Positions 1 through 62,672 of a stretch of 64,000 nt of DNA are shown in pieces. The notes beneath the pieces are model-generated. The model searched no databases, had not been told where the DNA came from, and worked only from the letters and a program-made list of their open reading frames with translations. Where the stretch lies: IMG/VR virus record IMGVR_UViG_2778261638_000005, positions 1-64,000 of that record. One strand, written 5' to 3'. The position numbers and the translations under genes are program-made. Source of the DNA: a virus (lineage: Duplodnaviria > Heunggongvirae > Uroviricota > Caudoviricetes). How positions within the stretch are numbered: position 1 is the first letter of the stretch; every line of letters starts with the position of its first letter.

Positions 1-2250
1 TCATGATTGGCTCCATGGCAACCACTTACCTTCAATCTTTAGTTGAGTCCAGATTCGCCCATTTACTGGCTCAGACTCATAAAAATTGATAATTCCTATT
101 GATTTATCTTTACTTTTTTCTTTAATAACAAAAATACCGGAAGTAACATTAATTGGTTTTCCTGTCGATTCTGGAAATGCATAATAGAATACTCCTCGTT
201 TTGCTCCATGAATATCCCCATTTGTCCAGTCATAAATATCGGCTGTATCTTTTTTCGACTGTTCGGCCGTAAGGCGTGCTTGACTCCAGAATTCTATGCC
301 GGAACAGAAAGCAGAACCGGTTGATACATTAACAGTAAGAGTATGCCAACCACGAGAGTTGATACGAAGATAGTTGTTAATTTCTGTCTTTGTCGTTGGT
401 TTCAAATAGCCTATGGGCTGATTAACAATATTAAATCCAAAGTTTATCCTCAACATTGAGGTATCATTCGAATATGAAAAATCTCGATTTATATCAAGAG
501 GTTTAGGTGGCATAATATTATTTCCATCAATATAAACATTAACCACCGAACCAGAAGGAACATAAAGGATAGGCCATGCTATAAGCTCATCGCTCTCTGC
601 AAAGAAAGACCATGTTACTCTTTCTCCTGCTGATATATCTAAGCATCGATTGCCAACGATATTATCACCATATGCAAAAGCAGCTTCAGCAGAATTATTA
701 TAGTATTTGTAAATGTCACTGGCTAACCTCGGTGAATTAATTACTATCGGATCGTAAAGTTTTCTGATAGTCAATTGTGAGCCATCAGAAACAACTGTTT
801 TTCGCATTACCAGATCACCGATAAATGCAGCGGCTATCTTAAATCCCCACGCAGAAGATGCATTGAGAACCAAGTGCACCGGATCTCCAAATCGAGTTCC
901 AGCATTAATTGATTGCGTGGCCTCAGCGTAGATATTGTCTCTGTAGCCTGCCATTAGCTCCACACTATCAATAACAGGAATCGAGTACTTATCGGCAAGG
1001 TATTTTAATGCATTCCCCATTTGTTGAACATCAACTCGCTTAACTGTCGGGAATGGATCGCTTGGGCTAGAAGTAGAATAAGTTTCGTATGCTTTATCAA
1101 ATCGCAACGGTAATGGCGTCAACAAAACAACTGGATGCCCCCAAGTTAGCTCCCTAATAATCAGCCTCTCAATCCAGAAAGTGTATTGCTCAATGTTACC
1201 TACTAATGCATAACCGTATTGTGCCGATGCGTCATTAGTACCGAAGTTAATCAACGAAATATCACCAGAATGATTATCCGTAAAAGTTTCAAAAGCATCT
1301 TGCGCGCAGAAACCTGACCTAGCTCGACTTATGGTGGTTACTTTGCCTGCCCCATATGCACTATTCATTGCTACGCGAAATTGAGTCTGGACGTTTTCAG
1401 AGTCTCGTACAGAGTTAGAGTCGCCGTACCAAGTTACAGAAAATACTTTTCCATCACGCAATTTTTTCAAATTTTCAGCTAATAAGTTTCTCTGAATATA
1501 ACTGAACCAGTCAGCATGAGAAAGAGCATCGCCGACTGTATTAGATGGATAAGTCAAATCTCCAGAAAAACCTGATAATCCAGCCCCTGTATTCTTGCCA
1601 AGCTCGATCATAATTTCTGTTGCCGACCCAGAAGGAGGAAGAACAACAATTGCATTACCTGAACTATCAAACACAGGCATTTTATTAGCTCTTTCTTTCG
1701 CTGATGGTAATTGGTTTATAGGCTCAGGAACACGAAGGCTCCTGTTCATATTTCCACTAACCTGTATATCTACATAGTTCTTAGTTGCTGCATCCTGTGG
1801 TTCAGTCGGATCACGCAAATTTTTGATATAATTATCCAGAGCATCATAATACTTTGCCACAAATAATGGTTTTCGAAGTGTAAGGCTGAACAAACTGCGA
1901 ACATGCTGGATTAGCATAGTTAGCTTATCAAAAGCATCCTCATGCACTTCTGCAAAGAACTTACCCTGATTGCGTAGATCAGTTTCCTGCGTAACCGGGA
2001 GTTCTCGTGATATAGAAATCTTATGACCGTTAGCCAATGCCTTTGACACAATTACATTTCCACCGTTGTATCCTCCAGCCCCGGTAACTGTGTAATCAGT
2101 ATCGAGAGCTAGCACAGCGATATTTTCATCAAGGTCAACCACTTGTACTACCAGATCAGATTTCTGGAAAATCCTGAAGGTATAAGGGAATGTCGTTGTA
2201 ACACCGTTACCAATGTATTCGTTGTGGTCAACTTCGGTTGAGACCGTCAT
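1..2250 (-). CDS. Tailspike/tail fibre protein with GDSL/SGNH esterase-like central domain (749 aa); stop codon at window position 1..3
   Basis: N-terminus MTVSTEVDHNEYIGNGVTTTFPYTF resembles conserved phage tail-fibre/tailspike adaptor domains; internal motif VTWYGDSNS fits a GDSL/SGNH hydrolase block I; last gene of the virion module. Confidence 0.6.
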   Translation of the reverse strand: MTVSTEVDHNEYIGNGVTTTFPYTFRIFQKSDLVVQVVDLDENIAVLALDTDYTVTGAGGYNGGNVIVSKALANGHKISISRELPVTQETDLRNQGKFFAEVHEDAFDKLTMLIQHVRSLFSLTLRKPLFVAKYYDALDNYIKNLRDPTEPQDAATKNYVDIQVSGNMNRSLRVPEPINQLPSAKERANKMPVFDSSGNAIVVLPPSGSATEIMIELGKNTGAGLSGFSGDLTYPSNTVGDALSHADWFSYIQRNLLAENLKKLRDGKVFSVTWYGDSNSVRDSENVQTQFRVAMNSAYGAGKVTTISRARSGFCAQDAFETFTDNHSGDISLINFGTNDASAQYGYALVGNIEQYTFWIERLIIRELTWGHPVVLLTPLPLRFDKAYETYSTSSPSDPFPTVKRVDVQQMGNALKYLADKYSIPVIDSVELMAGYRDNIYAEATQSINAGTRFGDPVHLVLNASSAWGFKIAAAFIGDLVMRKTVVSDGSQLTIRKLYDPIVINSPRLASDIYKYYNNSAEAAFAYGDNIVGNRCLDISAGERVTWSFFAESDELIAWPILYVPSGSVVNVYIDGNNIMPPKPLDINRDFSYSNDTSMLRINFGFNIVNQPIGYLKPTTKTEINNYLRINSRGWHTLTVNVSTGSAFCSGIEFWSQARLTAEQSKKDTADIYDWTNGDIHGAKRGVFYYAFPESTGKPINVTSGIFVIKEKSKDKSIGIINFYESEPVNGRIWTQLKIEGKWLPWSQS

Positions 2251-2353
2251 GTTAAATCTCCAGATAGTCGCAGCACCCGTTGCGCCGCATACCCGGCCAT
2301 TTTATTACCTTAAAAACCATATATGTATAGAAATGTCATCAATACGAACAGTA

Positions 2354-2368
2354 TTACCTTTCAGGTAA
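2354..2368. promoter_or_regulatory. Palindrome TTACCTTTCAGGTAA (TTACC-N5-GGTAA), upstream part of a repeated regulatory cassette preceding the tailspike gene
   Basis: Perfect inverted repeat; same motif at 18973..18987, 25564..25578 and 25626..25640. Confidence 0.5.
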
Positions 2369-2444
2369 TTTACAAAACGTGCTGGATAGCAAACAAATTA
2401 TTTGATACTGTATATTCATACAGTTATTGCATGGAGAAGATAAG

Positions 2445-2702
2445 ATGCAGCAGTATCACTATCCACTGGAAGACGGATTTACCGAAAGGGTTCACACGCC
2501 GGGAGGCGTCAGATCACTGGTGGAGGGATCGCACTTGATGAAATTACTCCGGGATCTCGATAAAGATGGATTCAATGTCGATGGCCCACTTGCCGAACTG
2601 ACTGCACTGATTAACTACGTAACCAGCTCACAGATGTCTATGCGGGATCTGCAAACACATCTCGACTATTGTGCCGAACAATTACGAAAACAAATCCGGT
2701 AA
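2445..2702 (+). CDS. Hypothetical small protein (85 aa from ATG; frame opens at TTG 2427), oriented opposite to the flanking virion genes
   Basis: ORF with GGAGAAG RBS about 8 nt upstream of ATG 2445; followed by a GAAA-tetraloop hairpin; no family recognised. Confidence 0.4.
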   Translation: MQQYHYPLEDGFTERVHTPGGVRSLVEGSHLMKLLRDLDKDGFNVDGPLAELTALINYVTSSQMSMRDLQTHLDYCAEQLRKQIR

Positions 2703-2709
2703 ATTTAAA

Positions 2710-2725
2710 GGCCGCGAAAGCGGCC
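2710..2725 (-). terminator. Stem-loop GGCCGC-GAAA-GCGGCC; U-rich tract on the minus-strand side
   Basis: 6-bp GC stem with GAAA loop; minus-strand reading gives hairpin then TTTAAATTT; sits between internal virion protein gene and tailspike gene. Confidence 0.35.
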
Positions 2726-2896
2726 TGTGGCATGTCACGCTCACGTTATGACAAACCTATGTACCCTGGCTACACCAGATAATATCAAAACAACTGCAAC
2801 AGCAAATTCACCATCACCAATGATACATTTACGGTTCATAACGCCAAGTGCAACAAGCGCAAACAAAACAAGAATAAAAGCAATCATTTCTCACCC

Positions 2897-5371
2897 TTAT
2901 TGCGGAGTGACATCCTGCGGTCGCCACCAGTATGTCTGGTTAAACTCTTTCTTCGAACGTTGCTCCATTTTACGCAAATAGCCTGGTGAAAAATACTCCT
3001 GCATCTGGTTAAAGATCATATGATCGAGAGCCGCCTTCAAGTACCAGAGATTCGCACCTGGCATCAGCCCCTTCCCAAGCTTAACCAGATCACCACCAGT
3101 CTGCTCATTCTTCCCTTCCACAGCATTTAACGGTATGCCCTGAGCAATCTTCACTACGTCATCAACCAGACCAGCTACCGGGCCAAACATCGACGCCAGC
3201 GCGCCGCTTCCGTACCTCGTGTGATCTGACAATAAAAAGTCACCGTAAAGGCCAAGACCACCACCTTTCAGCAGAGCACCAAGCCAAAATTTAGCAGCAT
3301 CTTCTCCTGTCATCTCTCGAGGATTACGACCAGACGCAAGGTCGTTAAGTTGCTGCGACAAAGCGCCAAGAATGGTCGTACTGGCAATAAACGTCGCAAT
3401 ATATGCCGCACGCCCACCAGCAGACGGCATACCCATAGCGCGTGACCAGTGACGCATAACCACCGAGATAGGGAACGATTTAAACAGGAAAACACTTCTC
3501 GTTAATTCACCTTTCCATGTTCCACGCTGAATACCAGAACCGGTTATCAGTTGCTCACGTGCTCCCGGTGTAATAACAGCCATATCAACTTCTTCAGTTA
3601 CGGCACCGAGCAGTTTACGCATTGCCTCAAATTTCACGCGTTCAGGCTCACCAAGATGTTTAACTGCTAAATCAGGGATACGCATAATGCTTTCCGGTGT
3701 CAGCATCGTATTATTACCGTTCCCCCAGTCCTCCTGTTGCGCCAGCTTCCATACGCTCCAGTCTGTGTCAGTAATCCCTTTGCTTTTCAGGATACGAAAA
3801 TCAGAGTCATCGAGGCTACGAAGGTCTGGTGTCCGTGACACTACTTCTCCCAGGCTTCCCATCATAGTTACGCCATAGGCGCGCTTGTGCGCATCTGACC
3901 ATGCTGTAAGCCCACTGGCACGCATTACCGCCGTTGCCGCCCAACGAGACACAGACGGCCCCATATTATCCATCGCCCAGCGGTTAACGCTGCCAAGTAG
4001 AGATTCCATCGCCAGACCAGCTCGGCGCGCCCGCGCAAGCTCAGTACGGTTCGTTGGGTCCATAGCTTCAAGCTGGTTGCGGAATAACTGGTTCATTGGA
4101 AGGTTGGTAACCTTCGCAGACAGATACATGGTTCCAAGATCAGAGAACGATGACAGCAACGCGGATCCGAGTCTGCTGGCAACCAGCCAGTTGCGGATAT
4201 TGTCAGACCATCGCGCGATGTGCGGATTCGCTACAGGCTGTGTCTTTCCGGAAATAAAGTTGTACAGATTCTCTGTGTTGTTCGCCAGCCGCTCGACTTT
4301 ACCGGTTTTACTCGGGTTAGCTGTTGCCGTTTCTGCCTTAACCTGATCAAGAAGGGAGCGGAAAACATGATCGGGGTTTGGACCATATGTTTCCACCAGT
4401 GCAATATCTTTACTGATACCTTCCAGGTGACCGACCATGATTTCCCATAGAGAGCGATCGCCATAAAGTTGCTGATATTGCAGATAGGAATCTGCATCTT
4501 TGAAATATATCTGTCGTGATGCATTACCACGGTTAGCACGTGCGCCGGAAATTCGCATTCCGGTATCAGTAAGCTTATTCAGCCCACCAGTAGCGATCGT
4601 GTTATAAGCCTCTCCAAGAAATGCAGACAACTCGGCATCGTTCATCAGTTGTCCATCGGCTCGGATATAATATTTGCGATCCAGCTTACCTATAACATCG
4701 CTAACCCACTTATCCTTTGATACCGCCCCAACCTTTTCCATAGAATGATGTTGAGGGATCCCCCAGTTTTCGAGATAGCCAATGTCCCCACCAGCATCAT
4801 TAAACCGGCGGCGCAGTAGCTCTGTCACTTCTCTCCACGCCTTAGCACCTTTTCTTGCTTTAGCATTGCCAGTATTTTGCCCCCGCATTTCATATACCAG
4901 GTCACGTACGCCCGCTTCATCTTCAAACAGACCAAAAAAGCGAGGATCAACTGCTTCGAATGCCTCCTGCAATTGACTCAATGCATAATCACGGGTGGCT
5001 TTTGTTCTGGATTCAACAGAGAGGAAATTCGATTTACCGTCTGCATTAAAAGCAATAGTACGGTTAAGAGCGCCAAGTTTCCCATCAGCCCCTTGATAGC
5101 TATTGATAAATTTATCCAATCTCTGACGTGCGGCTATAGTGAGGGCCACACGACGTTTCTTTAATGCCGCTTCTCGCTGTAATTCTTCAGATGCCAATTG
5201 TGCTGCACGATATAGCCGCTCTGATTCGGAAAGTTGTCTCCACGACATCGTGTCATCACGAGCAATGGAGCGCATATTTCGATAAATGCGGTCTTCAATG
5301 TTCTGTATTTCTCGCGCCGTTAACGTGCGCTGCGCCGCCTGCTGGACCGCTTGTATACATTCCTGTCTCAT
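2897..5371 (-). CDS. Internal virion / ejection protein (824 aa), T7 gp15/gp16-like position
   Basis: Large ORF in a run of three large genes between the tail tubular genes and the tailspike; coiled-coil-rich N-terminus; assignment by position. Confidence 0.45.
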   Translation of the reverse strand: MRQECIQAVQQAAQRTLTAREIQNIEDRIYRNMRSIARDDTMSWRQLSESERLYRAAQLASEELQREAALKKRRVALTIAARQRLDKFINSYQGADGKLGALNRTIAFNADGKSNFLSVESRTKATRDYALSQLQEAFEAVDPRFFGLFEDEAGVRDLVYEMRGQNTGNAKARKGAKAWREVTELLRRRFNDAGGDIGYLENWGIPQHHSMEKVGAVSKDKWVSDVIGKLDRKYYIRADGQLMNDAELSAFLGEAYNTIATGGLNKLTDTGMRISGARANRGNASRQIYFKDADSYLQYQQLYGDRSLWEIMVGHLEGISKDIALVETYGPNPDHVFRSLLDQVKAETATANPSKTGKVERLANNTENLYNFISGKTQPVANPHIARWSDNIRNWLVASRLGSALLSSFSDLGTMYLSAKVTNLPMNQLFRNQLEAMDPTNRTELARARRAGLAMESLLGSVNRWAMDNMGPSVSRWAATAVMRASGLTAWSDAHKRAYGVTMMGSLGEVVSRTPDLRSLDDSDFRILKSKGITDTDWSVWKLAQQEDWGNGNNTMLTPESIMRIPDLAVKHLGEPERVKFEAMRKLLGAVTEEVDMAVITPGAREQLITGSGIQRGTWKGELTRSVFLFKSFPISVVMRHWSRAMGMPSAGGRAAYIATFIASTTILGALSQQLNDLASGRNPREMTGEDAAKFWLGALLKGGGLGLYGDFLLSDHTRYGSGALASMFGPVAGLVDDVVKIAQGIPLNAVEGKNEQTGGDLVKLGKGLMPGANLWYLKAALDHMIFNQMQEYFSPGYLRKMEQRSKKEFNQTYWWRPQDVTPQ

Positions 5372-14989: not shown

Positions 14990-15982
14990 TTACACCACGC
15001 GGGCTTCTGTTTCCAGAAGCGCATCAGTTTCACGGATTGGTACACCACGGAATGAAGTCCACCACTCGCCTTCTGTCTCTTTTACGCTGATCGCCAGAGA
15101 TGTTTTCTCCAGAGATTGCAGATCAAGAGCCTGGCCTACAGTGCGGTTCATGTAGAACACTGGGCGCCCCATGCCACGGTTTGGAATGCGATGCAGTGCT
15201 TTAACCATCAACTTCGCAATATTTGCGGCAGAGGAAGGTTCTGAAAGATTGCTGACATCGATGTTTGCAATGCGAACGACATAACGCCAGTCACGCAGAG
15301 CAAGTCCGTTATCCCATTTGTAATGGGTACGGTAGCCTTCGTACTTGCCGCCATTAGCATCTTCCAGTGTCACTTGGCCTTTATCTTCCATCTGAATGCC
15401 AGCCTTCTGCCCTTTCGGGAAGATGCCATGCACGGTGTTTTCGCCCCACACCACTAACCAGATTGAGGTGTTATCTGTACCCGTGCCACCAGCATCAATG
15501 ATGTTCTGAGCATTACCCGCAGACAGGCTGGAATAGCGGGAGGACAGTCCCATAAACTGCTGAGGGTTAACGCTGGAATCACCATAAAACAGCGTCTGCG
15601 CCATCTGCTGATTCATCGCTTCAATAAATGCTCGGTCTTCAGACAGGCGGAATTCGGCGGTATTGCCGTTCAGATCAGCCAGTGACTTATCGACCTCAGC
15701 ATAGGTTTCCAGCATGCCAACGGAATCGGTGACCTGCACTGTGGTTGATTTGCTTGGCTGTACGCCATAGTTCAGCAAACGCCAGGTAGCTGAAGGTAAA
15801 CCAGAACGAATGGTGGTTCGGTGTCCGGTAGGAAGGTTCCCTTCGACAAAAGGCATATCCTGAAGGATCGGGTTAGTTTGACCGAGAAGCTCGATAATCT
15901 TATCGACTTTCCCGTTTGGATCGACGCGCTTACCCCAGTCAGCCAGCGTTAGCGCAGTTAAGCCTTTAACAGCCATTGTCAT
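14990..15982 (-). CDS. Major capsid protein (330 aa)
   Basis: Follows scaffold gene; size and composition typical of T7/epsilon15-type HK97-fold capsid proteins. Confidence 0.7.
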   Translation of the reverse strand: MTMAVKGLTALTLADWGKRVDPNGKVDKIIELLGQTNPILQDMPFVEGNLPTGHRTTIRSGLPSATWRLLNYGVQPSKSTTVQVTDSVGMLETYAEVDKSLADLNGNTAEFRLSEDRAFIEAMNQQMAQTLFYGDSSVNPQQFMGLSSRYSSLSAGNAQNIIDAGGTGTDNTSIWLVVWGENTVHGIFPKGQKAGIQMEDKGQVTLEDANGGKYEGYRTHYKWDNGLALRDWRYVVRIANIDVSNLSEPSSAANIAKLMVKALHRIPNRGMGRPVFYMNRTVGQALDLQSLEKTSLAISVKETEGEWWTSFRGVPIRETDALLETEARVV

Positions 15983-16692: not shown

Positions 16693-16985
16693 TCCTGTTC
16701 ACTGGCCTCTTTGGCCATCTTCAAATACTGTTCAGGGCAATGCGCCATAACGCGCTGAAACAGTTCCAGCGCCAGATTGCGTTGCCCCTCATTAAATGCC
16801 ATTGCCATAGCGTCCATCGGTGAGATAGCGGAAAACACACGGCCTTTCTCCAGCACCGACCAGACAACGCGACGCCCCTGTTCACTGCTCATGACAAAGC
16901 GAATGTCATCAATTTCACGCTGCGCCATGTCACGTTGCTTACGGGCGTTTTCTTCTTTCAGTTGATCGTCTTCGTAATCTGTCAT
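16689..16985 (-). CDS. Hypothetical protein (98 aa)
   Basis: ORF translationally coupled between portal and scaffold genes. Confidence 0.4.
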   Translation of the reverse strand: MTDYEDDQLKEENARKQRDMAQREIDDIRFVMSSEQGRRVVWSVLEKGRVFSAISPMDAMAMAFNEGQRNLALELFQRVMAHCPEQYLKMAKEASEQE

Positions 16986-18661
16986 TGTGATTGCCCACCC
17001 TGACCACTAACTGCATTCGCCATAGCTGACAAAACACTCGGATCCGAAGTTTTAGCTTCGCTTAGCGTCTTGGCACCCTGTGCCGCCGCCATCCCCATCG
17101 CCATCATTTGTTGCTGCTGTTGTTGCTGTGCCCGTTGCTGGCGAGTCTGCTCAACCTGTTCCTGCGGAACAATGACGGTTGGAGACACTCCGGACATATC
17201 AGCGAATGCATCGATCGCCTGATCAACGTTGAGTTTGTCGAGAGCTTCTGGTTTCGCTTGCGCAAGTTGACCAATGAAGTTGACCGTAGACGCCAGACTG
17301 GACAGGCCGATAGACTTCTGCGCCTGAGCCATGACGGAAATGTATTCGACCTTCAGGGGCATACCTTCCATCGCGTCAGGCGGTGGCGGCAGCATTTTTT
17401 TACGCACCATCATCGAGAAAGCGCGGTCAATGAGAGGATTAAGACATTCGTCGTTCAGACGCTCCAGAACCGGCCCCAACATCAGAAGTTTTTCTTCTTT
17501 CATTTCGATCACCGCTTCAACAGGCATCGAGCGGGTATTGATGTTCTGCAACATCATGAACAGATCGACAAAGTAGGCGCTGTTAATGATTTGGCGAGTG
17601 TCCTGAATGTCTGCTACCAGATCTGCTGTACTGGGGTTAACCAGATAAGCAGGCCTGAAACCATCCTGACCAGTAATCTGATCGATATACGTGATGTCGC
17701 CAGGAAGAAGGGAGGCGCGCTGATTCTTGAGGGAAGTCGGAGCAACCATCGGCGGATTGGTGGCTTTATCAATCAACTGCGACTTGCGCTTCTGGAGAAG
17801 CTGCAATGCCTTAACAGGTCCAAGCGCCAGCATACCCGGGCATGATGATCCATAAACATCTTCGCCGTTAACTTCCCAGCGCGGAGCCATAATTGGAAAC
17901 TCATCGAATCCGGACTCACGCAACAACTTGTCGTTATCGCCACCAACCTCGTAATAAACCGATTTGAATGGCTTGTTCTTGCTATCCAGCTTCGATGTAT
18001 CGCGGTCAATGTTCGGGTAAACCGAATGCATCACTTCAATCCACTTCTCGTAGGTGCCGCTTTCCCACATGCTTTTTACGGATTCGCTGACGTTATTTAG
18101 CCCGAACTCCTGAACAAGCTGACGAACAGTCATAGAGAACTTGCGAAAACAGGTGTCCACACTGCCACGAGGTGAGTTAGCCAGGTAGTAACTGCCTATC
18201 GGGAATGGCATTGTGCGAATGATGTCCTCGTCATCCTCCAGCACTGCCATTGCACCAGTGCTGTATGTGCCGAGGCTTCCGTATAACTGCGGCAGAGACT
18301 GATAGAGATTCGACTTATTGAACATATCGTTCATGCGGTTCTGCACCGCCTCAAGCCACAACTTAACAGGGCCATAATCCATCATTTCAGGATCTGGCGT
18401 AGCCAGGCGAAACCACGGACGCGCGGGGCTTGTGATGCCTGACATCATGCCGCTGGCGAGAGTGCGCGCCGCCATAGTCCCGGTCGAATCAATAATGCGT
18501 GTATTGCGTCGATCGTTACGGTTGACCTCAGAAGTCAGAAAGCGGGAACCACGCGGGTTGATGTAATCACTCAACTCGCGCCAGTGCGGCTCGAACGACT
18601 GACGCTCGCTTTCAAGTTGTGCGAACTGTTTGTTCAATCGCTCTTTAGTTGTTTCCGCCAT
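16982..18661 (-). CDS. Portal (head-to-tail connector) protein (559 aa)
   Basis: Size and position upstream of scaffold/capsid; Gln-rich C-terminal tail typical of T7-type portals. Confidence 0.7.
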   Translation of the reverse strand: MAETTKERLNKQFAQLESERQSFEPHWRELSDYINPRGSRFLTSEVNRNDRRNTRIIDSTGTMAARTLASGMMSGITSPARPWFRLATPDPEMMDYGPVKLWLEAVQNRMNDMFNKSNLYQSLPQLYGSLGTYSTGAMAVLEDDEDIIRTMPFPIGSYYLANSPRGSVDTCFRKFSMTVRQLVQEFGLNNVSESVKSMWESGTYEKWIEVMHSVYPNIDRDTSKLDSKNKPFKSVYYEVGGDNDKLLRESGFDEFPIMAPRWEVNGEDVYGSSCPGMLALGPVKALQLLQKRKSQLIDKATNPPMVAPTSLKNQRASLLPGDITYIDQITGQDGFRPAYLVNPSTADLVADIQDTRQIINSAYFVDLFMMLQNINTRSMPVEAVIEMKEEKLLMLGPVLERLNDECLNPLIDRAFSMMVRKKMLPPPPDAMEGMPLKVEYISVMAQAQKSIGLSSLASTVNFIGQLAQAKPEALDKLNVDQAIDAFADMSGVSPTVIVPQEQVEQTRQQRAQQQQQQQMMAMGMAAAQGAKTLSEAKTSDPSVLSAMANAVSGQGGQSQ

Positions 18662-25785: not shown

Positions 25786-25859
25786 AAATCATTTGATACC
25801 GTTTTGAATTTTTTTTGATACCACCCAAAACGGCACAACGAAAAATTATTTGATACTAA
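25786..25859. repeat. Right-end transposase-binding-type repeats (ATTTGATAC motif x3)
   Basis: AAATCATTTGATAC 25786..25799, TTTTGATACC about 25814..25823, AAATTATTTGATACT 25843..25857; inverted relative to the left-end copies. Confidence 0.6.
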
Positions 25860-26593
25860 TCGGGAGTGCTTTTAGGGTATGGCTGAACCCTGAATAGCTT
25901 AGTATTTAGCCGCTTCCTTGCTCGCTTGTTCAGGAACCTGATGTAGCGATACTGATTAAATTTGTGCACCACGGCACGCTCTTTATTAGCCCGTAAATAC
26001 ACGCCTCGTTGTCCACCGCGCTTAATTGCGTTCATCGTTATCTCGTGATACCACTCACCATCCAGCTCGTAGAACGTGCTTTCATGGCTGCCAATAAAAT
26101 CAAAATTCGACGCCTGATACACAACGCCTGCGCGTCCGCAGCGTTCGTCAGCAAAGGACTGAACCCACTCCACTGACGGATACAGTAATCTGATAACTTT
26201 CAGCGCGTAGCTGATGGCCCGTGATTCAGAGTTGCGGGGCATGTCGTCGTGTAGCCACATGCGATTCAACTCCATATAGCCCCGGTTATCCGTTTCAAGC
26301 ACGACACGACGACCTGAGTTGGGGTTAAGGGCATATCCCCACTGGAGAACGCCAACCAGATCGCGTCCGCTGAATACTCCCAGGTGGAGGTAAGAGTTAT
26401 TCACAAAACGGCGGGAATAGTGCTTTGTCTGAATAATTGTGCGGGCCAGCCAGCAGGATATGGTTTCAACGCGCAGCTCCTTTGAACCATAGCCAACAAT
26501 CTGGCCTTCATACTCAATAACGCACGGTTTCGTCAGAATGCGTGATTTTTTCTCTTTTCCCACAATGTTTCTCCGTGGGATGCTCGCAGGCAT
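25856..26593 (-). CDS. mom: Mom DNA-modification protein (start codon uncertain)
   Basis: Directly downstream of and overlapping com, last gene before the element end as in Mu; about 245-aa ORF. Confidence 0.7.
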
Positions 26594-27460: not shown

Positions 27461-28463
27461 GGTAAACAGGGCTGGTAACGCCGTTCAAAAGACAGGCGAT
27501 ACCTTATCCGGTGGGCTTACTTTTGAAAACGACTCAATCCTTGCCTGGATTCGAAATACTGACTGGGCAAAGATTGGATTTAAAAATGATGCCGACAGCG
27601 ACACAGATTCATACATGTGGTTTGAAACAGGCGACAACGGCAATGAATATTTCAAATGGAGAAGCAAACAAAGCACCACAACAAAAGACCTGATGAATCT
27701 TAAATGGGATGCTTTGTCTGTTCTTGTTAAAGCCCTTTTCAGCAGTGAAGTAAAAATATCGACAGTCAATGCACTGAGGATATTTAATTCATCTTTTGGT
27801 GCCATTTTTCGCCGTTCTGAAGAATGCCTGCATATCATCCCTACACGAGAGAATGAGGGGGAAAATGGTGATATAGGGCCACTACGTCCCTTTACGCTTA
27901 ATCTCAGAACTGGCCGCATAACTATGGGGCATGGTCTGGATGTTACAGGAGATATAACAACTAACGCCTGGGTGTATGCAAACAGGTTTGCTATTAATAG
28001 TGGCTCAACCTCATGGATTGATATGCGAAACCAGAATGTCATTTTTGGTAGAAACGCAGTATCAACAAGTTCTGCGCAGGCTTTGTTAAGACAAGACCAT
28101 GCAGAACGCAAATTTTTTGTCGGTGGACTTGGTAACTACCAGTTTGGTTTTTACATGATTAATAACTCAAGGACAGCCAATGGCACCGATGGTCAGGCGT
28201 ACATGGATAATAACGGTAACTGGCTTTGTGGCTCGCAAGTTATTCCTGGCAACTATGGCAATTTTGATTCCAGATATGTGAGAGATGTTCGCCTGGGTAC
28301 GCGAGTTGTTCAATTGATGGCGCGTGGTGGTCGTTATGAAAAAGCCGGACACGCAATTACCGGATTAAGAATCATTGGTGAAGTAGATGGCGATGATGAA
28401 GCCATCTTCAGGCCAATACAAAAATACATCAATGGCACATGGTATAACGTCGCACAGGTGTAA
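27441..28463 (+). CDS. Alternative tail-fibre C-terminal segment (Sv'-like), promoterless in the present orientation
   Basis: Frame is open back through the gix site (starts NLGLQETVN, the same junction peptide found in the expressed fibre); ends ...INGTWYNVAQV like the expressed fibre. Confidence 0.7.
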   Translation, partial: NLGLQETVNRAGNAVQKTGDTLSGGLTFENDSILAWIRNTDWAKIGFKNDADSDTDSYMWFETGDNGNEYFKWRSKQSTTTKDLMNLKWDALSVLVKALFSSEVKISTVNALRIFNSSFGAIFRRSEECLHIIPTRENEGENGDIGPLRPFTLNLRTGRITMGHGLDVTGDITTNAWVYANRFAINSGSTSWIDMRNQNVIFGRNAVSTSSAQALLRQDHAERKFFVGGLGNYQFGFYMINNSRTANGTDGQAYMDNNGNWLCGSQVIPGNYGNFDSRYVRDVRLGTRVVQLMARGGRYEKAGHAITGLRIIGEVDGDDEAIFRPIQKYINGTWYNVAQV

Positions 28464-28994
28464 ATGATGCAGCATTTAAAAAATATTAAGTCTGGAAATC
28501 CTAAAACGAAAGAACAATATCAGCTAACAAAGAATTTTGATGTTATCTGGTTATGGTCCGAAGACGATAAAAACTGGTATGAGGAAGTGAAAAACTTTCA
28601 GCCAGACACAATAAAGATTGTTTACGATGCAAATAATATTATTGTCGCCATCACTAAAGATGCCTCCACGCTTAACCCTGAAGGTTTTAGCGTCGTTGAG
28701 GTTCCTGATATTACAGCCAACCGCCGCGCTGATGATTCAGGAAAGTGGATGTTTAAGGATGGAGCTGTAGTTAAACGGATTTATACGGCAGACGAACAGC
28801 AACAACAGGCCGAATCACAAAAGGCCGCATTGCTTTCCGAAGCTGAATCAGTCATCCAGCCGCTGGAACGCGCTGTCAGGCTGAATATGGCAACAGACGA
28901 GGAACGCACACGACTGGAAGCATGGGAACGCTACAGTGTTCTGGTCAGCCGTGTGGATACGGCAAATCCTGAATGGCCACAAAAGCCTGAATAA
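28464..28994 (+). CDS. Tail-fibre assembly protein (U'-like), 176 aa
   Basis: Paralog of 29023..29556 (shared motifs [36 protein letters not shown]). Confidence 0.75.
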
Positions 28995-28999
28995 AAATT

Positions 29000-29019
29000 A
29001 AGGCCCGCTATCGGGCCTT
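29000..29019. terminator. Bidirectional hairpin AAGGCCCG-CTAT-CGGGCCTT between convergent tail-fibre assembly genes
   Basis: 8-bp stem; A/T-rich flanks on both sides. Confidence 0.5.
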
Positions 29020-29022
29020 GTC

Positions 29023-29556
29023 TCATTCAGGTTGTTCGGGAAATGTTACTGGCAGGCTGGAGGTGTCTGTAGATTCGACTTTCTGCGCATAGAGCATCCA
29101 CTCAGTTAATTTTTGTTTATTCTCGTCGGAAATGATGCCCAGCCGTAGCTGTGAGTCCCATAGCTGGGTTTTATCCCTGACAAGTTGCAACAGGCTTTGT
29201 TTTTCATTCTCTGCCTGCTGCCTTTGTTCCTCCTCGGTATAAGTTCGCTTTATCACTACGCCATCTTTGAACATCCATTTACCCGAAATATCAGCCCGGC
29301 GATTTGCTGTAATATCAGGAACCTCAACGACGCTTGCGCCTTCTGGATTAATTGCTGAAACATCCTTTTCAATACAAATAATAACGTCGTTGTGGTCATA
29401 GACCATTTTCAACGTATCAGGCTGAAAGTTCTTTTGTTCCTCATACCAGTTTTTCCCATCCTCTGTATAAAGCCATTTGATGTTAAATTGTTTCGTTAGC
29501 TGGTATTGCTCTTTTGTTTTAGGGTTGCCAGCAGTAATGTTTTTTAAGTGCATCAT
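29023..29556 (-). CDS. Tail-fibre assembly protein (U-like), 177 aa
   Basis: Follows the expressed tail-fibre gene; paralog of the + strand copy. Confidence 0.8.
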   Translation of the reverse strand: MMHLKNITAGNPKTKEQYQLTKQFNIKWLYTEDGKNWYEEQKNFQPDTLKMVYDHNDVIICIEKDVSAINPEGASVVEVPDITANRRADISGKWMFKDGVVIKRTYTEEEQRQQAENEKQSLLQLVRDKTQLWDSQLRLGIISDENKQKLTEWMLYAQKVESTDTSSLPVTFPEQPE

Positions 29557-29558
29557 CG

Positions 29559-31019
29559 TTAAATACTCCCCGCGTTATACCACGTCCCATTAATGCAATA
29601 CTGAATTGGCCTTGCCTGAGTTGTATCAATTAATTCATCACGGTTTCCGTTAACTGAACCTGTAACGACATAACCTGACCTGTCAGACCAGCCGGGACCA
29701 TTCCATGTCTGAACAGATGACAGACCGCCCAGGCGAATACCTGTAATAAACCTTGAGTTACATTCTGCCTGCGTATATGCACCAACATCCCCCGCAGAGG
29801 GTTTGCGGGTTGTGGTGTAAAACTCTGACCAGTTAGCTTCAAAGCCATAACCATCACGCGCTGAACGATAAAAGATACCGCCGTTCTTATAATTCACGCG
29901 GAACTGTACAGCAGGGCAACTCCCCGCATTCATATTGAAGTGGAGGATTAATGTCGATGCGCCACTGATATCTGCATCATAAACGCCGCTATTCCAGTTC
30001 CAGCCAACAGCTTTATCATTTGCAACCCTGCTTCCTGTTTGCCCTAAAGCAAATGCAGGCTGCTGGTTTTTCGTGTTGTAGTCTCTTCGCCAGCCAGGAG
30101 CATAAGCATCACCATGATTAATATAAGTGAATTGAGCGTTAGTAATTCCGCCACCGCTGGACGTGCTCGGGGTGGTTACACGGATGGTCATGGCTCCTTT
30201 ATTACCCATAACCTCAATAACGCAACCTGCAAGATGAATAGTTCCACAGCCAGTATCGGTAATAATTTTATTATTGCCGTATGACCATGAACATTTGCAC
30301 ATCCAGTATGGGTGATTGAATGCCCCTTGAGAATCCAGCCATTCAATCAATTGTGCCGTCGTCCAGTTTCCTGCACCTGTGCTAATAGCACTGTGAAAAG
30401 CGCGACATGCACCAATATTTTTTGTGAAAGTATCTTTTCCTGGAATATCTGCGCCGTTCTGGTTTTTCTGTAATGCGCCAGAAGCCTGATTTACCGTTTC
30501 CTGTAAACCGACGTTTTGGATAAACAGCGGCTTATTGGGAATATCTGCTCCGTTCCGGTCTTTTGCCAGACGGGCATTGGCATTATCCATCGCAATTTTC
30601 ACCGCTTTTGCGGTGGCTGCCAGCGTTTCACTGGGGCTGTCAGTGGCACTGGTTAGCTGAACGAGTCCTTTTTTGTTCAGGCTGGCATCATAGATATCCA
30701 GATTTTCACGTGCTGTACGCTGTGCTGATGCCCCGGCAGTTTTAATTTCACTGAGGTTATTTTTTATCAGCAGCGCGTTATTGCTCATAATGGCTTTAAT
30801 GGACAGTGCAAGCTGGTTTAATTTTGTTTTATCCGGTTGAATACCGGCTTCTTCCAGCGTGTTTAATAACTCCGCCTGCACAATATTAAACCAGTCCATG
30901 CCGGGCCATGTGATAACATTATTCCCGTCACCTTCTGAAAACCAGCGAACGATAGCACTACGCTGGGCGGATACGGGCGGCATGACGGTTACGCCGCTGT
31001 CGTTATCAATATAAAACAT
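29559..31019 (-). CDS. Tail fibre protein (S-like), 486 aa; constant N-terminus outside and variable C-terminus inside the invertible segment
   Basis: gix site lies in codons for GLQETVN at 30496..30523; repeated NGADIP(N/G)K motifs. Confidence 0.8.
   Translation of the reverse strand: MFYIDNDSGVTVMPPVSAQRSAIVRWFSEGDGNNVITWPGMDWFNIVQAELLNTLEEAGIQPDKTKLNQLALSIKAIMSNNALLIKNNLSEIKTAGASAQRTARENLDIYDASLNKKGLVQLTSATDSPSETLAATAKAVKIAMDNANARLAKDRNGADIPNKPLFIQNVGLQETVNQASGALQKNQNGADIPGKDTFTKNIGACRAFHSAISTGAGNWTTAQLIEWLDSQGAFNHPYWMCKCSWSYGNNKIITDTGCGTIHLAGCVIEVMGNKGAMTIRVTTPSTSSGGGITNAQFTYINHGDAYAPGWRRDYNTKNQQPAFALGQTGSRVANDKAVGWNWNSGVYDADISGASTLILHFNMNAGSCPAVQFRVNYKNGGIFYRSARDGYGFEANWSEFYTTTRKPSAGDVGAYTQAECNSRFITGIRLGGLSSVQTWNGPGWSDRSGYVVTGSVNGNRDELIDTTQARPIQYCINGTWYNAGSI
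30496..30523. repeat. gix-type recombination site (right inverted repeat) inside the tail-fibre gene
   Basis: GTTTCCTGTAAACCGACGTTTTGGATAA, inverted copy of 27433..27460. Confidence 0.8.
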
Positions 31020-31561
31020 TAGTTATCTCCGTCATGGTAAACAAATTTATAAATCTGATGTGCGGGTTTATATTTCTCCAGTAAACATTCCAGCGCACCC
31101 GATTCATAAACACGTAACGGCGTCAGAACATTATCCAGCACCGTTGCGTTGCGATAATTTTTAATACCGTAAATATTGACCTGCGTAACCCACTGGCCTT
31201 CTGTGGAATCCGTCAGCCTGACGGTAAAACCGTACTGTGCAGCCAGCCATTCATAAAAGCGCCGACTCAGATTGCCGGTCATACGCATTTTATTCGCGGC
31301 AGCCCGCTGGCGTTCGGACAAGGTGCCGTTTTCGCTGGTACAGTCCGGCAACCCCAGAAATGATTCCCACTCCCCCAGATACCAGCGGGATGTGGACGGG
31401 AAACGCTCCCGCAGCATTTGCCGCGCATCATCCGCCGCAGTGGCAATCACGTCGCTGATGGCCTGCGCCAGCGCAGATAATTTGCTGTCGGGGCTTTTAT
31501 TCCAGGCAAGCCCTGACGGCAGTAATTGCAGAAAGGCCGTCTGATAGGGTGTTACAGCCAT
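31019..31561 (-). CDS. Mu gp48-like tail protein (180 aa)
   Basis: Position between baseplate J and fibre; family resemblance to YmfQ/gp48 (recollection). Confidence 0.6.
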   Translation of the reverse strand: MAVTPYQTAFLQLLPSGLAWNKSPDSKLSALAQAISDVIATAADDARQMLRERFPSTSRWYLGEWESFLGLPDCTSENGTLSERQRAAANKMRMTGNLSRRFYEWLAAQYGFTVRLTDSTEGQWVTQVNIYGIKNYRNATVLDNVLTPLRVYESGALECLLEKYKPAHQIYKFVYHDGDN

Positions 31562-32634
31562 TCAATTGTCCCCGGTGTTAACAGTTCCGTATTCTCCGAA
31601 CGCTGGATCTCTGTCGGGAAACGCACTTCAAAATCATCCAGACCGGTAACACCTGCCACCGCACGGATAATACGGGAGGGGGCAAGTGCGCCGCCCGGCG
31701 TCACCTCATTAAAAAACATGGTATTAATGGCGTGGGTAATAGCCTGTTTCAGTTCGGCTGTCTTCGGTGATATATAAATCCGTGGATTTACCGGCTTTGC
31801 CTTTGGCGCAAATACAGTGACATTTACACCGTCAGGCTGTCCGACAATCAGACCGGTGATCGGGTCAGTATGACCGGCGATATAATCTGCCACGCGTTCC
31901 ACGTCTGCCGGTTGTGGAAAAATATTGCTCCGGTTATCCATAACAAACGTCACCCCGACTGTGCCACCGCCTTTCCATGTCGGAAAACACCAGGCACGGG
32001 TAACGCCGCTGACTTCACGTGCCCAGCGGACGTAATCAAACTGATTACCGCCGAACGGAGGATACTGGACACGATATTCCAGCCGTGACAGCAGCTCCGC
32101 TGCACTCTCAATATCAGCCCCACCGGAAAACCCTTTTACAGTGATGGCATCGGAAACAACACAGGCAACCGGGGTGATCAACGTTAAAAGGGTATTCTCA
32201 CCGGTATTTCCTGCTTCACCGGCAGCCAGTGCGGTAACGGTAATTTCCGTCGTTCCTGCACGGTCAATCACAATGGCATCAGCCAGGCTGTAAACCACAC
32301 CATCAGCACGCTGCCAGCGTGTACCGGCAGGAATGGTGGTCGCTGCCGATGTGGTGACAGTCAGCGGGCCGCTGGCGGCTGTCGCCTGTTTGCGGCGCAC
32401 GCCCCAGAACCGGCAGTGCTCCAGCAACTCATCTTCATCTGCTGTCGACGGGATAATCTGCCGTCCAACCCATGAAATATGCTCGTGACAACCGGCAGCA
32501 AGGCCCGCCTGAGCATAAGCAATGGCACTCAGCGTTTTTTCACGGGCCTGAGGCCAGCTACCCGGCAGGCGCTGTTCAATATTCTGTTCTGTACGGGCAA
32601 TCAGCGATGATAATGTCGGTGGTGAATAAGCCAT
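31552..32634 (-). CDS. Baseplate J-like protein (Mu gp47-like), 360 aa
   Basis: Size and position in Mu-type baseplate cluster. Confidence 0.7.
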   Translation of the reverse strand: MAYSPPTLSSLIARTEQNIEQRLPGSWPQAREKTLSAIAYAQAGLAAGCHEHISWVGRQIIPSTADEDELLEHCRFWGVRRKQATAASGPLTVTTSAATTIPAGTRWQRADGVVYSLADAIVIDRAGTTEITVTALAAGEAGNTGENTLLTLITPVACVVSDAITVKGFSGGADIESAAELLSRLEYRVQYPPFGGNQFDYVRWAREVSGVTRAWCFPTWKGGGTVGVTFVMDNRSNIFPQPADVERVADYIAGHTDPITGLIVGQPDGVNVTVFAPKAKPVNPRIYISPKTAELKQAITHAINTMFFNEVTPGGALAPSRIIRAVAGVTGLDDFEVRFPTEIQRSENTELLTPGTIEWL

Positions 32635-33072
32635 TTAAACCCCGTTAAATGCTGCTTTAAACTCATAAGGAATAACGGAACCATCCGGTAATGTCAGTGC
32701 AATGTAGAGGTATAACCAGCCCTGATGTAACTGTTCCGCTCTGATGTTAATCGCACTTACCCGGCCCGCTGTTTTCAGCCATTCCAGCGCCTCTTCGGCA
32801 TACCCTCTGGCGCGTTCCAGCGTATCCGGTGTGGCTTTTTCACGTGATAACAGCCATAACCGCGAACCGATGGGGCGGTCGCGGTAACTGTCACCCCACC
32901 ATCCACGGCGATCATCTGAACCATCCGGCAGCGTGTCAGAATCCAGCGCGCGCCGGTCTGTAAACAGGGAGATTGTCACATCGGTTGTCAGGCTGTCGTC
33001 GGTCAGCATATCAATGCCATCCTGTGCAATATCGCCGCGTCCGTTCGTCCAGATAATGGCTAAATCGGTCAT
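32635..33072 (-). CDS. Baseplate wedge protein (gp25/W-like; Mu gp46-like), 145 aa
   Basis: Size and position. Confidence 0.6.
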   Translation of the reverse strand: MTDLAIIWTNGRGDIAQDGIDMLTDDSLTTDVTISLFTDRRALDSDTLPDGSDDRRGWWGDSYRDRPIGSRLWLLSREKATPDTLERARGYAEEALEWLKTAGRVSAINIRAEQLHQGWLYLYIALTLPDGSVIPYEFKAAFNGV

Positions 33073-33662
33073 TGCATTGGCCCCGTGGTTCCGCCGCTGT
33101 CGCCACGGTGGATATGCTTATCCGTCGATTTGCCATTGATGATGGCATCCGGGGCAGTAATATTGCTGTCGAACTGGCTTTTACCTTTAACGCCCAGACC
33201 TTTCTGGATCTCAACGTCGCCGGTAAACGTGGTTCTGGGTGTGTCAACGGTCATACTTTCATCAGCGTAAACCTCAACCGTTTTACAGGTAATGATGCAG
33301 CGTCCGTCCTTTGTCAGCCTGATACGATGCCCCTCGTGGTGGTAAATGCCTGCATCACCCGGTTCAAGATTTGTCGGGCGGTAGCGGCGGTCTTCCACCA
33401 CAACGGCAATCCCCTGATCACGTTGTGCGCCTACACAGGCAATCAGCGCCTCTGCGCCCGGCAGGGGAACGCTGAAATGCCCGTAATTTTGCAGGCGCTC
33501 CACTTCATCAGATTCCTCATCATCCAGCAGGCCGACCTGCAGGTTCTGAACCTTTCGCCCGTCGTTAATCACGTTAACAACAGCGCGCGCAAGCATCAGG
33601 CGCACACGACGCATCAGCGGCGTCAGCAGGCGGTTCAGGGCGGAATCATTTACTCTTTCCAC
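33069..33662 (-). CDS. Baseplate assembly/spike protein V-like (Mu gp45-like), 197 aa
   Basis: Size and position. Confidence 0.6.
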   Translation of the reverse strand: MERVNDSALNRLLTPLMRRVRLMLARAVVNVINDGRKVQNLQVGLLDDEESDEVERLQNYGHFSVPLPGAEALIACVGAQRDQGIAVVVEDRRYRPTNLEPGDAGIYHHEGHRIRLTKDGRCIITCKTVEVYADESMTVDTPRTTFTGDVEIQKGLGVKGKSQFDSNITAPDAIINGKSTDKHIHRGDSGGTTGPMQ

Positions 33663-34789
33663 GGCGGCGTTTTCTCCGGGTGTCTGCGATAATAATCTTC
33701 AACCAGCGCATCAATACCGCCGTTACTGTCGCCGCCTTTCCTGTTTTTACGGTCGCTTTCAACCGGCACCAGAAAGCCTTCGCGTGGTGCAAGGCTGACG
33801 CGGGTTTTCAGCCCGTCCTGGTCATTCAGTATCAGGGTGACTTTGCTGACCAGTAATTCCGTGGTTTTGATGGCATATTTCGAGGCATCAATAGTGACCA
33901 GCAGGTTCGGCATCCAGAGTTGCCCGTCCTTGCGAGTCCATCCGTCAATTTCAGCCTCAAAGGTGATGGATTTTGCCAGTCTGCGGCGTTGCTCACGCAG
34001 GGCGCGGGCCTGTGCATCCTTCGCCGTAATTTTGCTGTCAGCAATGATGATCATCGGTCTGTAACGGGTTACATCACTGTCAGTGGCGGTCCCTTTCCGG
34101 GAGACGATACTTTTCGCATCAATATCATCACCCTCAGCACCGTTTGCGCGGGCATACCCCTTGACGGTGTATTCGCTGAACCGGTCGCGGAAGTCTTCCT
34201 CAAAATCCAGTGTCAGCAGATTTTCTCCGAGAACCAGCTCATCAGTGGCTGTGCTGGCAGCCCGGCTGAATACCAGCTCTCCTGCGGCATTGCTGGTCAT
34301 CAGTACACCGCGTGCGCGGGAGGCACGCACCAGCGCCTCATAAACGGTTTCTGAATGGTCCAGCGTGAAGCCGGGAAAAGCTGCCGAACTTTCCTTATCG
34401 GAAAGCTCCCAGCGAACGGTAACGCCATAAGGAGCGCACAGGTCACGCGCAATCTGCTCCAGTGTGCGGTTTTTCCACTGTCCGCCACTGTAAACGGCAG
34501 CACAGTCAATCAGGTCAGCCGTTTTGTCACGTCCGGCGATAGTGATTTTCATGCTGTCAGCGGTCATCTGGCGTCGCCGCGAATCGATATAACCGGTGCA
34601 GACAATCTGCCCGTCGATTTCCAGCGTGAACGCCTTCCCCGGTGCCAGCCCGGATAAATCTGTACCCGGTGGCACATTCACCCCCAGCTCAAAATATCCG
34701 GCTACGGATTCAATGGAGCGGGTGACAGAGACTGACGTCCAGCCGGTAAAAAGCCTGCCATCCGTTCGCAGCGTGACGGTATTACTCAT
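33650..34789 (-). CDS. Baseplate hub / late control D-like tail protein (Mu gp44-like), 379 aa
   Basis: Size and position after DNA-circularisation-protein gene. Confidence 0.65.
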
Positions 34790-36273: not shown

Positions 36274-38346
36274 TTACCAGCCTGTAATGTAGTTATCGCC
36301 CGCGTAAATATTCAGCCCCATACCGTCCTCGGTGACGCGGGAACTGGTCAGACGTAACCCCTCGCCAAGTTCGACGCGCAGCGAGGCTTCCGCATTCACT
36401 TTTTGTTCCTGCGGTTCCTTATCCGGGGCCGTCCATTTCTGATACAGGTCGGTTACAAAACCGCCCAGATACTCCCCGGCGACACTGCCCAGCGTGGCAC
36501 CGGCAACCGTACCCAGCGGTCCGGCAAGGCTGCCAACGGCACCGCCGAGCCATGCACCGGCTGTACTGCCAATTGCGCCTGCTTTTTCATGGGTTGACGC
36601 CTGCTCATCCATCAGGACGGGGGCAAGCTGGAGTGCCCCCATTACCGGGCCACCCAGACGTGACAACGCACGACCGGCACCTTTCCCCATCCAGCCCAGC
36701 GCCCCGGCACCTTTTGTCACAACCCGACCGATCGCACTGCCTGCAAGTTTGTTTCCGATACCGGAAAACCACCCGCCAACAGCACGCCCGGCATCAGCCA
36801 GCTTTCCGACCGTTCCCGTAACCAGTTGCCCGGCAGCACTGCCTGCAAGCCTGCTCAGAAGACCGGATTTACCGGGTAAAGGTAATGGTGCAGGCCGTGC
36901 TGTTACCGGTACGCCGGGTGGGGGTAATGCCAGTACAGGGCGTGGTGCAGGTAATGCCAGCGGCTGTGGCCCGGACAGCAATAACGGCTGGCGGGGTAAC
37001 AGCGGGGCCATTCTTCCGCCGCTCCGTCCGCGACGACCGCCGCCACTCCCGTAGCCACCAAATCCACGGGGCCAGTTGATGACAAACACACGCTGAATGC
37101 CAATACCCTGCAACAGCGTCTCAGACGTCATGGCATCCGGGACCGGCAGACCTGCCTGCCCACGTTTGCGGTTTCGCATCCAGCGCCACATACGACGCCC
37201 GGTTTTAAACGGATAACTGGCAACCTGCCATGAGGGTTTTGCCACGGCCCAGCCTGCTCTCAGGGCTTTATTGGCAAGCCAGACAGACACCAGAACAGCA
37301 GCCAGTTTTTTCAGGCTGACAATATTCTGGTCAACCCATGCCAGCGCATCTTTACCCGGTTTCAGCCAGCGCCATAATTCCTGCGCCGCGATTTTTACCG
37401 TTCTGAACGTGGTCAGAAATTTCTGACCAATGTTTTCTGCCAGTGCATCAAGTTCCCCGGATTTATCCGCCATGTCGTGCCAGTTAAGCACCCGGCGCAT
37501 CTCGTTCTTGATTTCTTCAAAGGGGCCGCTGTTTGCCACCTTTATGCGAAATTCAAGCAGGTTGGCTTCCATCTGGGCGAACATCCCGTCCCAGGAGTTC
37601 ATCGCACTGGCCTGTGCACCTTTTGACTGTTCTGACAGCGTACTGAATACCGTCAGAATGGATTTCATGCCCAGCTTGCCCTTTGTACCCAGATCACGGA
37701 TTTTTTTAACGTCCGTTCCCGTTGCATCCGCCAGCGCCTGATAAACGTTGATACCGTAACCGGTCAGCAGGTTGGCATCCGCCGCTGTGATTTGCTGGCG
37801 GGCAAACATCTGTTTCAGTTGCAGTGAGGCACCCTGTGCAGTGGGTAAATCCCAGCCGTGCATGGCCCCCTGATCCTGCAACATGGTGATGAACTGTTTC
37901 GTCTGTTCATCCGTCATGCCGAAGCCTTTCGACGAACGGATCTCATCAAGAACACCACTCAGCCCCCACGTGGTGTCCTTCGCGTTCTGCTTCGCCCAGG
38001 CCATCATGGCCTGCGCTCTGACCTTATCGCCGTGATACAGCGAGTTCATGGCGATGATCTGCTGCTCACGCTGGGCGGCTGCACCAATAAACAGTTTATT
38101 GGCGGTGTAACCCACGCCAGCGATACCCAGCGCCCCGGCTGACAGCATTCGGAATGTACGGGTTGACAGTGAACCCATTCTGTCAATGGCACCAGAAACG
38201 CGCACAACCTCCATACGCAGGGCACGAAGGGAACTTTGCCCGCTACGGGACAGGGCGTTTATCTGGTTCGAATACTGGCGGGAACGCCGGGAAAGATTGC
38301 CATTAAGATCAATAATGACAGACGCCTTTAAGCGTTTCCCGGTCAT
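36274..38346 (-). CDS. Tail tape measure protein (690 aa)
   Basis: Long helical N-half, Gly/Ala/Pro-rich C-half; between tail chaperone and baseplate genes. Confidence 0.7.
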
Positions 38347-49578: not shown

Positions 49579-49585
49579 AACCCTC

Positions 49586-62507: not shown

Positions 62508-62672
62508 CAGTAGTATCAAATATTTTTTCGTTTTTAGCTTTCTTTGCGACAGTAGTATCAAATCACATGTTGTGCGCATAACACTGTTTTACGTCATAAC
62601 TGTTTGTTTTATCCCATCAAATCCCGTTTGATCCACTTTCCTCCCGGATTTTTCAGCAGTATCAAATGATTT
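62508..62672. repeat. Left-end transposase-binding-type repeats (CAGTAGTATCAAAT x3)
   Basis: Copies at 62508..62521, 62550..62563 and 62654..62667 (third is CAGCAGTATCAAAT); reverse complement of the motif at the right end. Confidence 0.6.

Follow-up and report, generated by a model that had tools for sequence, protein, structure and literature searches.

Esterase tailspikes are well established: they have been described for phage G7C (2017), for the phages Moo19 and B2 (2024) and, as the petal of epsilon15, in a preprint (2026), and they are also known in Acinetobacter and Klebsiella phages. For gp63.1 of the virulent N4-like phage G7C (PDB 4QNL), which is part of a branched two-protein adsorption apparatus, esterase activity was reportedly measured by Prokhorov and co-workers in 2017, and the O-antigen backbone is said to be left intact. 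The tailspikes Moo19 gp82 and B2 gp48 hydrolyse p-nitrophenyl acetate, and both phages depend on O-acetylation of the O-antigen (PMC11654681). The tailspike gp20 of epsilon15 begins with a flexible and trimeric phage-binding arm (segment 1-252) and also has an SGNH esterase, the C-terminal petal (10.64898/2026.07.31.742079). In temperate Klebsiella phages, receptor-binding proteins with SGNH domains are widespread and predict the type of surface polysaccharide; two of them are confirmed esterases (PMC13123978). Here, a related gene is analysed that lies at the beginning of a 64,000-nucleotide stretch of caudovirus DNA (positions 1 to 64,000 of IMG/VR record IMGVR_UViG_2778261638_000005), in the following referred to as the window. 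A first-pass annotation of this DNA had claimed a tailspike of 749 residues carrying an SGNH esterase motif. This finding is correct and ordinary in kind. What is new is a divergent, esterase-only member of the family on an epsilon15-type scaffold, with a predicted specificity for an O168-type O-antigen. Very probably, the protein is the tailspike of an epsilon15-like podovirus in which an SGNH acetyl-esterase module and a beta-sandwich replace the beta-helix, and which deacetylates the O168-family O-antigen.

The open reading frame (ORF) is real and complete. It is encoded on the minus strand, on which the first-pass annotation was silent, starts with ATG and ends with a stop codon that corresponds to bases 1-3 of the window. 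The gene, its domains and the conserved blocks of the esterase domain are as follows:

1-2250, minus strand: complete tailspike gene, 749 residues, from the ORF list and the sequence
1516-2250, minus strand: N-terminal virion-binding arm of the epsilon15 gp20/Uetakevirus type, residues 1-245, 71% identical to gp20 residues 1-252
796-1515, minus strand: SGNH/GDSL esterase domain, residues 246-485
4-795, minus strand: C-terminal region, residues 486-749, beta-rich and mostly composed of strands in the structure model
1417-1425, minus strand: block I, G276-D277-S278, with Ser278 as predicted nucleophile (conservation in 79 sequences)
1309-1320, minus strand: block II, R311-S312-G313-F314, with Gly313 as predicted oxyanion-hole residue (G313 invariant in 79 sequences)
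1231-1242, minus strand: block III, G337-T338-N339-D340, with Asn339 as predicted oxyanion-hole residue (conservation in 79 sequences)
874-885, minus strand: block V, D456-P-V-H459, with the predicted acid and base of the triad (conservation in 79 sequences)

The motif VTWYGDSNS, on which the original call was based, comprises residues 272-280 (nucleotides 1411-1437). As had been conceded, a short motif is by itself weak evidence: of the shuffled versions of the protein, 25% contain "GDS". The full signature settles the call. All four SGNH blocks are present in canonical order (GDS276-278, G313, GTND337-340, DPVH456-459), and this ordered pattern was found in 0 of 20,000 shuffles. An exhaustive HMMER search yielded 189 cluster representatives at E <=0.001, 79 of which were aligned. 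In this alignment G276, S278, G313, G337, D340 and H459 are invariant, and D277, N339 and D456 are conserved to at least 90%. Given that shuffling never produced the ordered pattern and that the key positions vary little (conservation of at least 90%) or not at all among the homologues, the SGNH signature is far beyond chance. The eight closest relatives share G276, D277, S278, S312, G313, G337, T338, D340, D456 and H459 without exception. That the SGNH domain is no longer hydrolytic, and serves merely as a carbohydrate-binding adhesin or in acyl transfer like the SGNH domains of OatA, PatB and OafA, is quite improbable.

For structure prediction, AlphaFold2 was run on monomers. The full-length model based on an alignment of eight sequences was unusable (mean predicted local distance difference test, pLDDT, 46.8), and was replaced by a model of residues 231-749 based on the 79-sequence alignment. 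It displays the three-layer alpha/beta/alpha flavodoxin-like fold that characterizes SGNH proteins; G276-D277-S278 come straight after a strand formed by residues 270-275. The proposed check of fold and triad was thus made and came out in favour of an esterase, with Ser278, Asp456 and His459 and the oxyanion residues Gly313 and Asn339 all conserved. The closest solved structures are phage tail proteins. A profile of the family matched Moo19 gp82 (9D80/9D81) with an E-value of 3e-52, SFP21A Gp09 (9LNA) with 6e-50, and B2 gp48 (9D84) with 2e-46; Moo19 was identified by tblastn, SFP21A and B2 from the descriptions of the PDB entries. The corresponding structural alignments have an identity of only ~14-18%. 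The beta-helix glycosidase without an SGNH domain that the first-pass annotation had named as its counter-case was not encountered: there is no beta-helix among the listed structure matches and none in the Pfam search, and the SGNH domain occupies residues 246-485. The strands of residues 486-749 suggest a beta-sandwich in the model, and this region is likely to bind carbohydrate and to contribute to the packing of the spike's distal end.

The N-terminus, which had been described as that of a conserved phage fibre, proved to be a virion-attachment domain of a known type. Residues 1-245 match PHROG 1640 ("tail protein", E 4e-139), and a search of PDB sequences matched residues 1-128 to the solved tailspikes Dpo31 and Dpo36 (E 5e-26); the N-termini of KN1 depolymerases were also matched by the arm. 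Past residue 252, BLASTP detected no similarity to the beta-helix, beta-sandwich or petal of epsilon15 gp20. With other Uetakevirus-like phages, among them TL-2011b, PAS61 and VB_ST_E15, the gene has only its first ~500 nucleotides in common, which is the usual pattern when an exchangeable receptor-binding module is linked to a conserved attachment domain. The module itself, residues 231-749, is found on other N-termini: in one relative (P0002) it is 81% identical and fused to a TSP1/gp66-type N-terminus, in another (P0007) it is 44% identical and carried by a P22-type head-binding domain, and further N-termini occur in other relatives. Such an exchange between attachment domains is typical of receptor-binding domains. 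In summary, several of the features of an esterase tailspike were found together: a virion-attachment N-terminus, a gene located in a phage tail module, and an SGNH domain with predicted distal beta-sandwich domains that are homologous to solved esterase tailspikes and free of a beta-helix.

The protein is 100% identical to WP_000218895.1 of E. coli AP022036, and three complete E. coli genomes (AP022036, CP067426 and CM135810) have a chromosomal gene that matches the full length of the DNA at 99.9-100% identity. Each of these copies is annotated as "hypothetical protein". Naming at NCBI is inconsistent within the protein cluster: the copies of 749 residues are hypothetical proteins, whereas copies of 619 residues with a truncated start are called "SGNH/GDSL hydrolase family protein". 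One member of 896 residues is named "replication protein P" and may be a gene-call fusion.

The distribution of the module was compared with that of O-antigen genes. The esterase module (window 4-1560, sensitive blastn) occurs in exactly eight of 5,426 complete E. coli genomes. The wzx-wzy segment of the O-antigen cluster of CP067426 is likewise restricted to eight of these genomes, and they are the same eight. Three of them carry the epsilon15-type spike, and five a version of 665 residues with a TSP1-type N-terminus (73% nucleotide identity); CP067426 holds the latter as a second copy. The sources of the eight genomes include cattle, ground beef and lettuce. Two unrelated temperate prophages, one a podovirus and one a siphovirus, carry the module, and only in this O-type. 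The most economical reading of these distributions is that the module is specific for the O168-family O-antigen. The claim that the tailspike would define receptor specificity has in this way gained a co-occurrence of eight for eight with a single O-antigen gene cluster. The cluster of CP067426 was located as follows:

Locus L006, 30026-35001, and locus L010, 1-7315: O-antigen cluster of CP067426 with GDP-fucose genes and a glycosyltransferase between manC and manB

The order of its genes is wzx, hexapeptide acetyltransferase, GT2, GT4, wzy, GT (glycosyltransferase), gmd, fcl, gmm, manC, GT2 and manB. The annotation pipeline PGAP assigns both flippase and polymerase to the "O168 family". The position between manC and manB is that given for wfeY, and the fucose pathway together with this glycosyltransferase fits published descriptions of O168 (PMC10606467). 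Besides E. coli, also Shigella boydii, S. dysenteriae and E. albertii harbour members of the protein cluster of the tailspike, at identities of at least 90%. According to the title of a 2007 study by Perepelov et al. (cited in PMC7685785), the polysaccharides of O168 and S. dysenteriae type 4 are closely related.

Several observations weigh against an esterase tailspike directed at this O-antigen. The match to Pfam Lipase_GDSL_2 (PF13472) is below threshold (20.7 vs a cut-off of 32.9 bits, E 6.6e-4), and a scan of the protein against NCBIfam gave no match. The hairpin with D456 and H459 is modelled with comparatively low confidence (pLDDT 66-72). The pairwise similarity to Moo19 gp82 is weak (BLASTP, 30% over 102 residues), and BLASTP found no similarity to G7C gp63.1. 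On the side of the receptor, the title of record CP067426, "O22:H8 strain 154", conflicts with the O168-type cluster of this genome, and the only support for O-acetylation of the O-antigen is the acetyltransferase gene in the cluster. Furthermore, the eight genomes may be partly clonal; they are not eight independent events, and the concordance may be inflated by shared ancestry.

Seven of the eight close relatives match the GDSL_2 model of Pfam at E <=0.01, the best at 1.2e-12, and the low score of the window protein is a sensitivity limit of the Pfam model and not the absence of a defining residue. Together with the frequency of "GDS" in shuffled sequences, the sub-threshold score is what speaks for a chance motif match in a conventional beta-helix glycosidase or lyase tailspike; this explanation is already refuted by the structure model and the structure matches and has virtually no probability left. 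Due to its weak pairwise similarity to Moo19 gp82, the window protein has therefore to be regarded as a divergent member of the family.

A different explanation is an active esterase tailspike that acts on some other acetylated glycan of the cell surface, for instance colanic acid, a K capsule or the enterobacterial common antigen. SGNH receptor-binding proteins of Klebsiella prophages have been proposed to act on capsules (PMC13123978), the eight genomes also possess WcaB and WcaF, acetyltransferases encoded in a colanic acid cluster, and the link to the O-antigen cluster could partly reflect the ancestry of the strains. However, nearly all E. coli have colanic acid genes, but only the eight genomes with one O-antigen cluster have the module. 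In addition, the Uetakevirus tailspikes studied so far are specific for O-antigens (PMC10408124), and dependence on O-antigen acetylation is seen in Moo19, B2 and G7C, the closest relatives that have been characterised. A substrate other than the O-antigen is therefore unlikely. The O22 antigen was considered as receptor as well, owing to the O22:H8 title and the G7C/4s O22 system, and was dropped: the cluster of the strain, with gmd, fcl, manC and manB, is of the O168 type.

For a tailspike that deacetylates the O168-family O-antigen, the following mode of action is plausible. The arm (residues 1-245) would attach the protein, presumably a homotrimer, to the tail, and the distal module would bind the O-polysaccharide of the host. 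We infer that the domain is catalytically active: Ser278 would act as nucleophile on an O-acetyl ester, His459 and Asp456 would serve as charge relay, and the oxyanion would be stabilised by Gly313 and Asn339. By analogy with G7C gp63.1, acetate would be released and the sugar backbone left intact. The likeliest substrate is the fucose-containing "O168 family" O-antigen, whose cluster encodes its own hexapeptide acetyltransferase; the identity and the position of the acetyl group are putative. Removal of the O-acetyl group would take place during adsorption, and in this way deacetylation may contribute to infection.

Compared to the known esterase tailspikes, the window protein shows both similarities and differences. 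Moo19, B2 and SFP21A are Shigella phages with an N4-like or T7-like N-terminal adaptor, whereas the adaptor of the window protein is of the epsilon15 type and its carrier is a temperate prophage with a different host. Most relatives contain an insertion of ~25 residues after block I, which is absent from the close subfamily of the window protein. A close relation to G7C gp63.1 was rejected; the two are remotely related (hhalign probability 77%, no BLASTP hit), and the substrate of gp63.1 is the 4s/O22-type O-antigen, whereas the window protein tracks the O168-type cluster. With epsilon15 gp20, a protein of 1,070 residues, the homologous arm and the position of the gene are shared: in both phages it follows the ejection-protein genes and precedes the seroconversion and lysis genes. 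In contrast, the whole distal part of gp20, consisting of the beta-helix endorhamnosidase, a beta-sandwich and the petal, has been replaced in the window protein, which is esterase-only. Kinship with the petal esterase was rejected as well (hhalign probability 0.4%, BLASTP without a hit beyond residue 252). The SGNH proteins of Klebsiella resemble the window protein by description; both are prophage-encoded tail proteins with SGNH domains. The former are linked to capsule (K-locus) types.

Just beyond base 1 of the window, the matching genomes continue with two AT3 acyltransferases, a membrane-anchored GDSL protein of 231 residues, two holins, a GH19 endolysin and a spanin. The AT3 and GDSL genes occupy the place of the epsilon15 seroconversion genes. 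Their positions, and those of the second carrier of the module, are:

Locus L007, 3315-6364 (AP022036), and locus L001, 8801-11852 (CP067426): putative seroconversion module between tailspike and lysis cassette
Locus L008, 5822-10923 (E. coli M10, CP010200): second module carrier of 665 residues with a TSP1/gp66-type N-terminus, adjoining the gene of a TipJ family tail protein

The seroconversion module comprises AT3 acyltransferases of 339 and 316 residues (PF01757) and the GDSL/SGNH protein of 231 residues, whose N-terminus includes a hydrophobic segment. The second AT3 gene of CP067426 is broken into ORFs of 186 and 122 residues. The carrier in strain M10 belongs to a siphovirus-type prophage at tRNA-Arg/yfdC, and there, too, two AT3 acyltransferase genes lie beside the gene of the 665-residue spike. 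Both module-carrying prophages hence have AT3 (PF01757) genes directly beside the spike gene. Acetyltransferase genes are also common in Klebsiella prophages with SGNH receptor-binding proteins (PMC13123978). A tentative and rather doubtful proposal is that the esterase spike and the downstream acyltransferases, with their membrane-anchored SGNH partner, work as a matched pair that erases and rewrites marks on the O-antigen. The virion would strip the acetyl mark of a susceptible O168-type cell, and the prophage would then acetylate other positions. A chain re-acetylated in this manner might no longer be bound or cleared by the same esterase, which would result in superinfection exclusion. Alternatively, the esterase may have evolved to remove the acetyl marks of rival converting prophages. 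That the pairing recurs in a siphovirus-type prophage which is unrelated but belongs to the same serogroup suggests that the combination was selected and is no coincidence.

The surroundings of the gene are those of an epsilon15-like (Uetakevirus) prophage, which in the matching genomes is integrated between yfgI and guaA. The order of genes equals that of epsilon15, i.e. tailspike (gp20), seroconversion genes, lysis cassette. After the tailspike gene, and on its strand, the window encodes large proteins where epsilon15 has its virion/ejection-protein genes gp15-gp17, and further on the head genes:

14990-15982, same strand as tailspike: GP7-type major capsid protein
16982-18661, same strand as tailspike: portal protein

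The gene of the large terminase comes after the portal, again on this strand. Between the ejection-protein genes and the tailspike (window 2427-2726) lies a divergent ORF of 91 residues on the plus strand that has no Pfam match. With a GC-rich hairpin on the minus strand (2709-2726), it mirrors the gp18/terminator/gp19/gp20 arrangement of epsilon15. A scan of positions 1-3000 for promoters and terminators gave counts no higher than in shuffled sequence.

A complete Mu-like prophage (window ~25800-62500) interrupts the epsilon15-like prophage in its early region; the latter resumes on the far side:

25856-26593: Mom, Mu-like prophage
27485-31019, both strands: tail-fibre and assembly genes, Mu-like prophage
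31552-34789: baseplate J and hub, Mu-like prophage
36274-38346: tape measure, Mu-like prophage
39301-40788: sheath, Mu-like prophage
47923-49770: terminase, Mu-like prophage
58393-59325: MuB, Mu-like prophage
59399-61486: MuA transposase, Mu-like prophage
62609-63391: replication protein P, epsilon15-like prophage past the insertion

AP022036 has this epsilon15-like prophage without the interruption, with an integrase adjoining guaA at its end. The window hence stems from another genome than AP022036, and its epsilon15-like prophage is probably no longer inducible.

The analysis provides a testable, sequence-based prediction of receptor specificity for a tailspike that is mostly labelled "hypothetical protein" at NCBI. 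The predicted activity is the removal of O-acetyl groups from an O168-type O-antigen, the cluster of which is rare (eight of 5,426 complete E. coli genomes). Modules of this kind are useful for O-typing reagents and for the retargeting of phages or tailocins. An esterase-only spike is added to the epsilon15-like phages, whose type member pairs an endorhamnosidase with a separate, unrelated esterase domain. Finally, the repeated pairing of an esterase spike with O-acyltransferases is a small lead: temperate phages may use acetylation both as a receptor mark and for superinfection exclusion.
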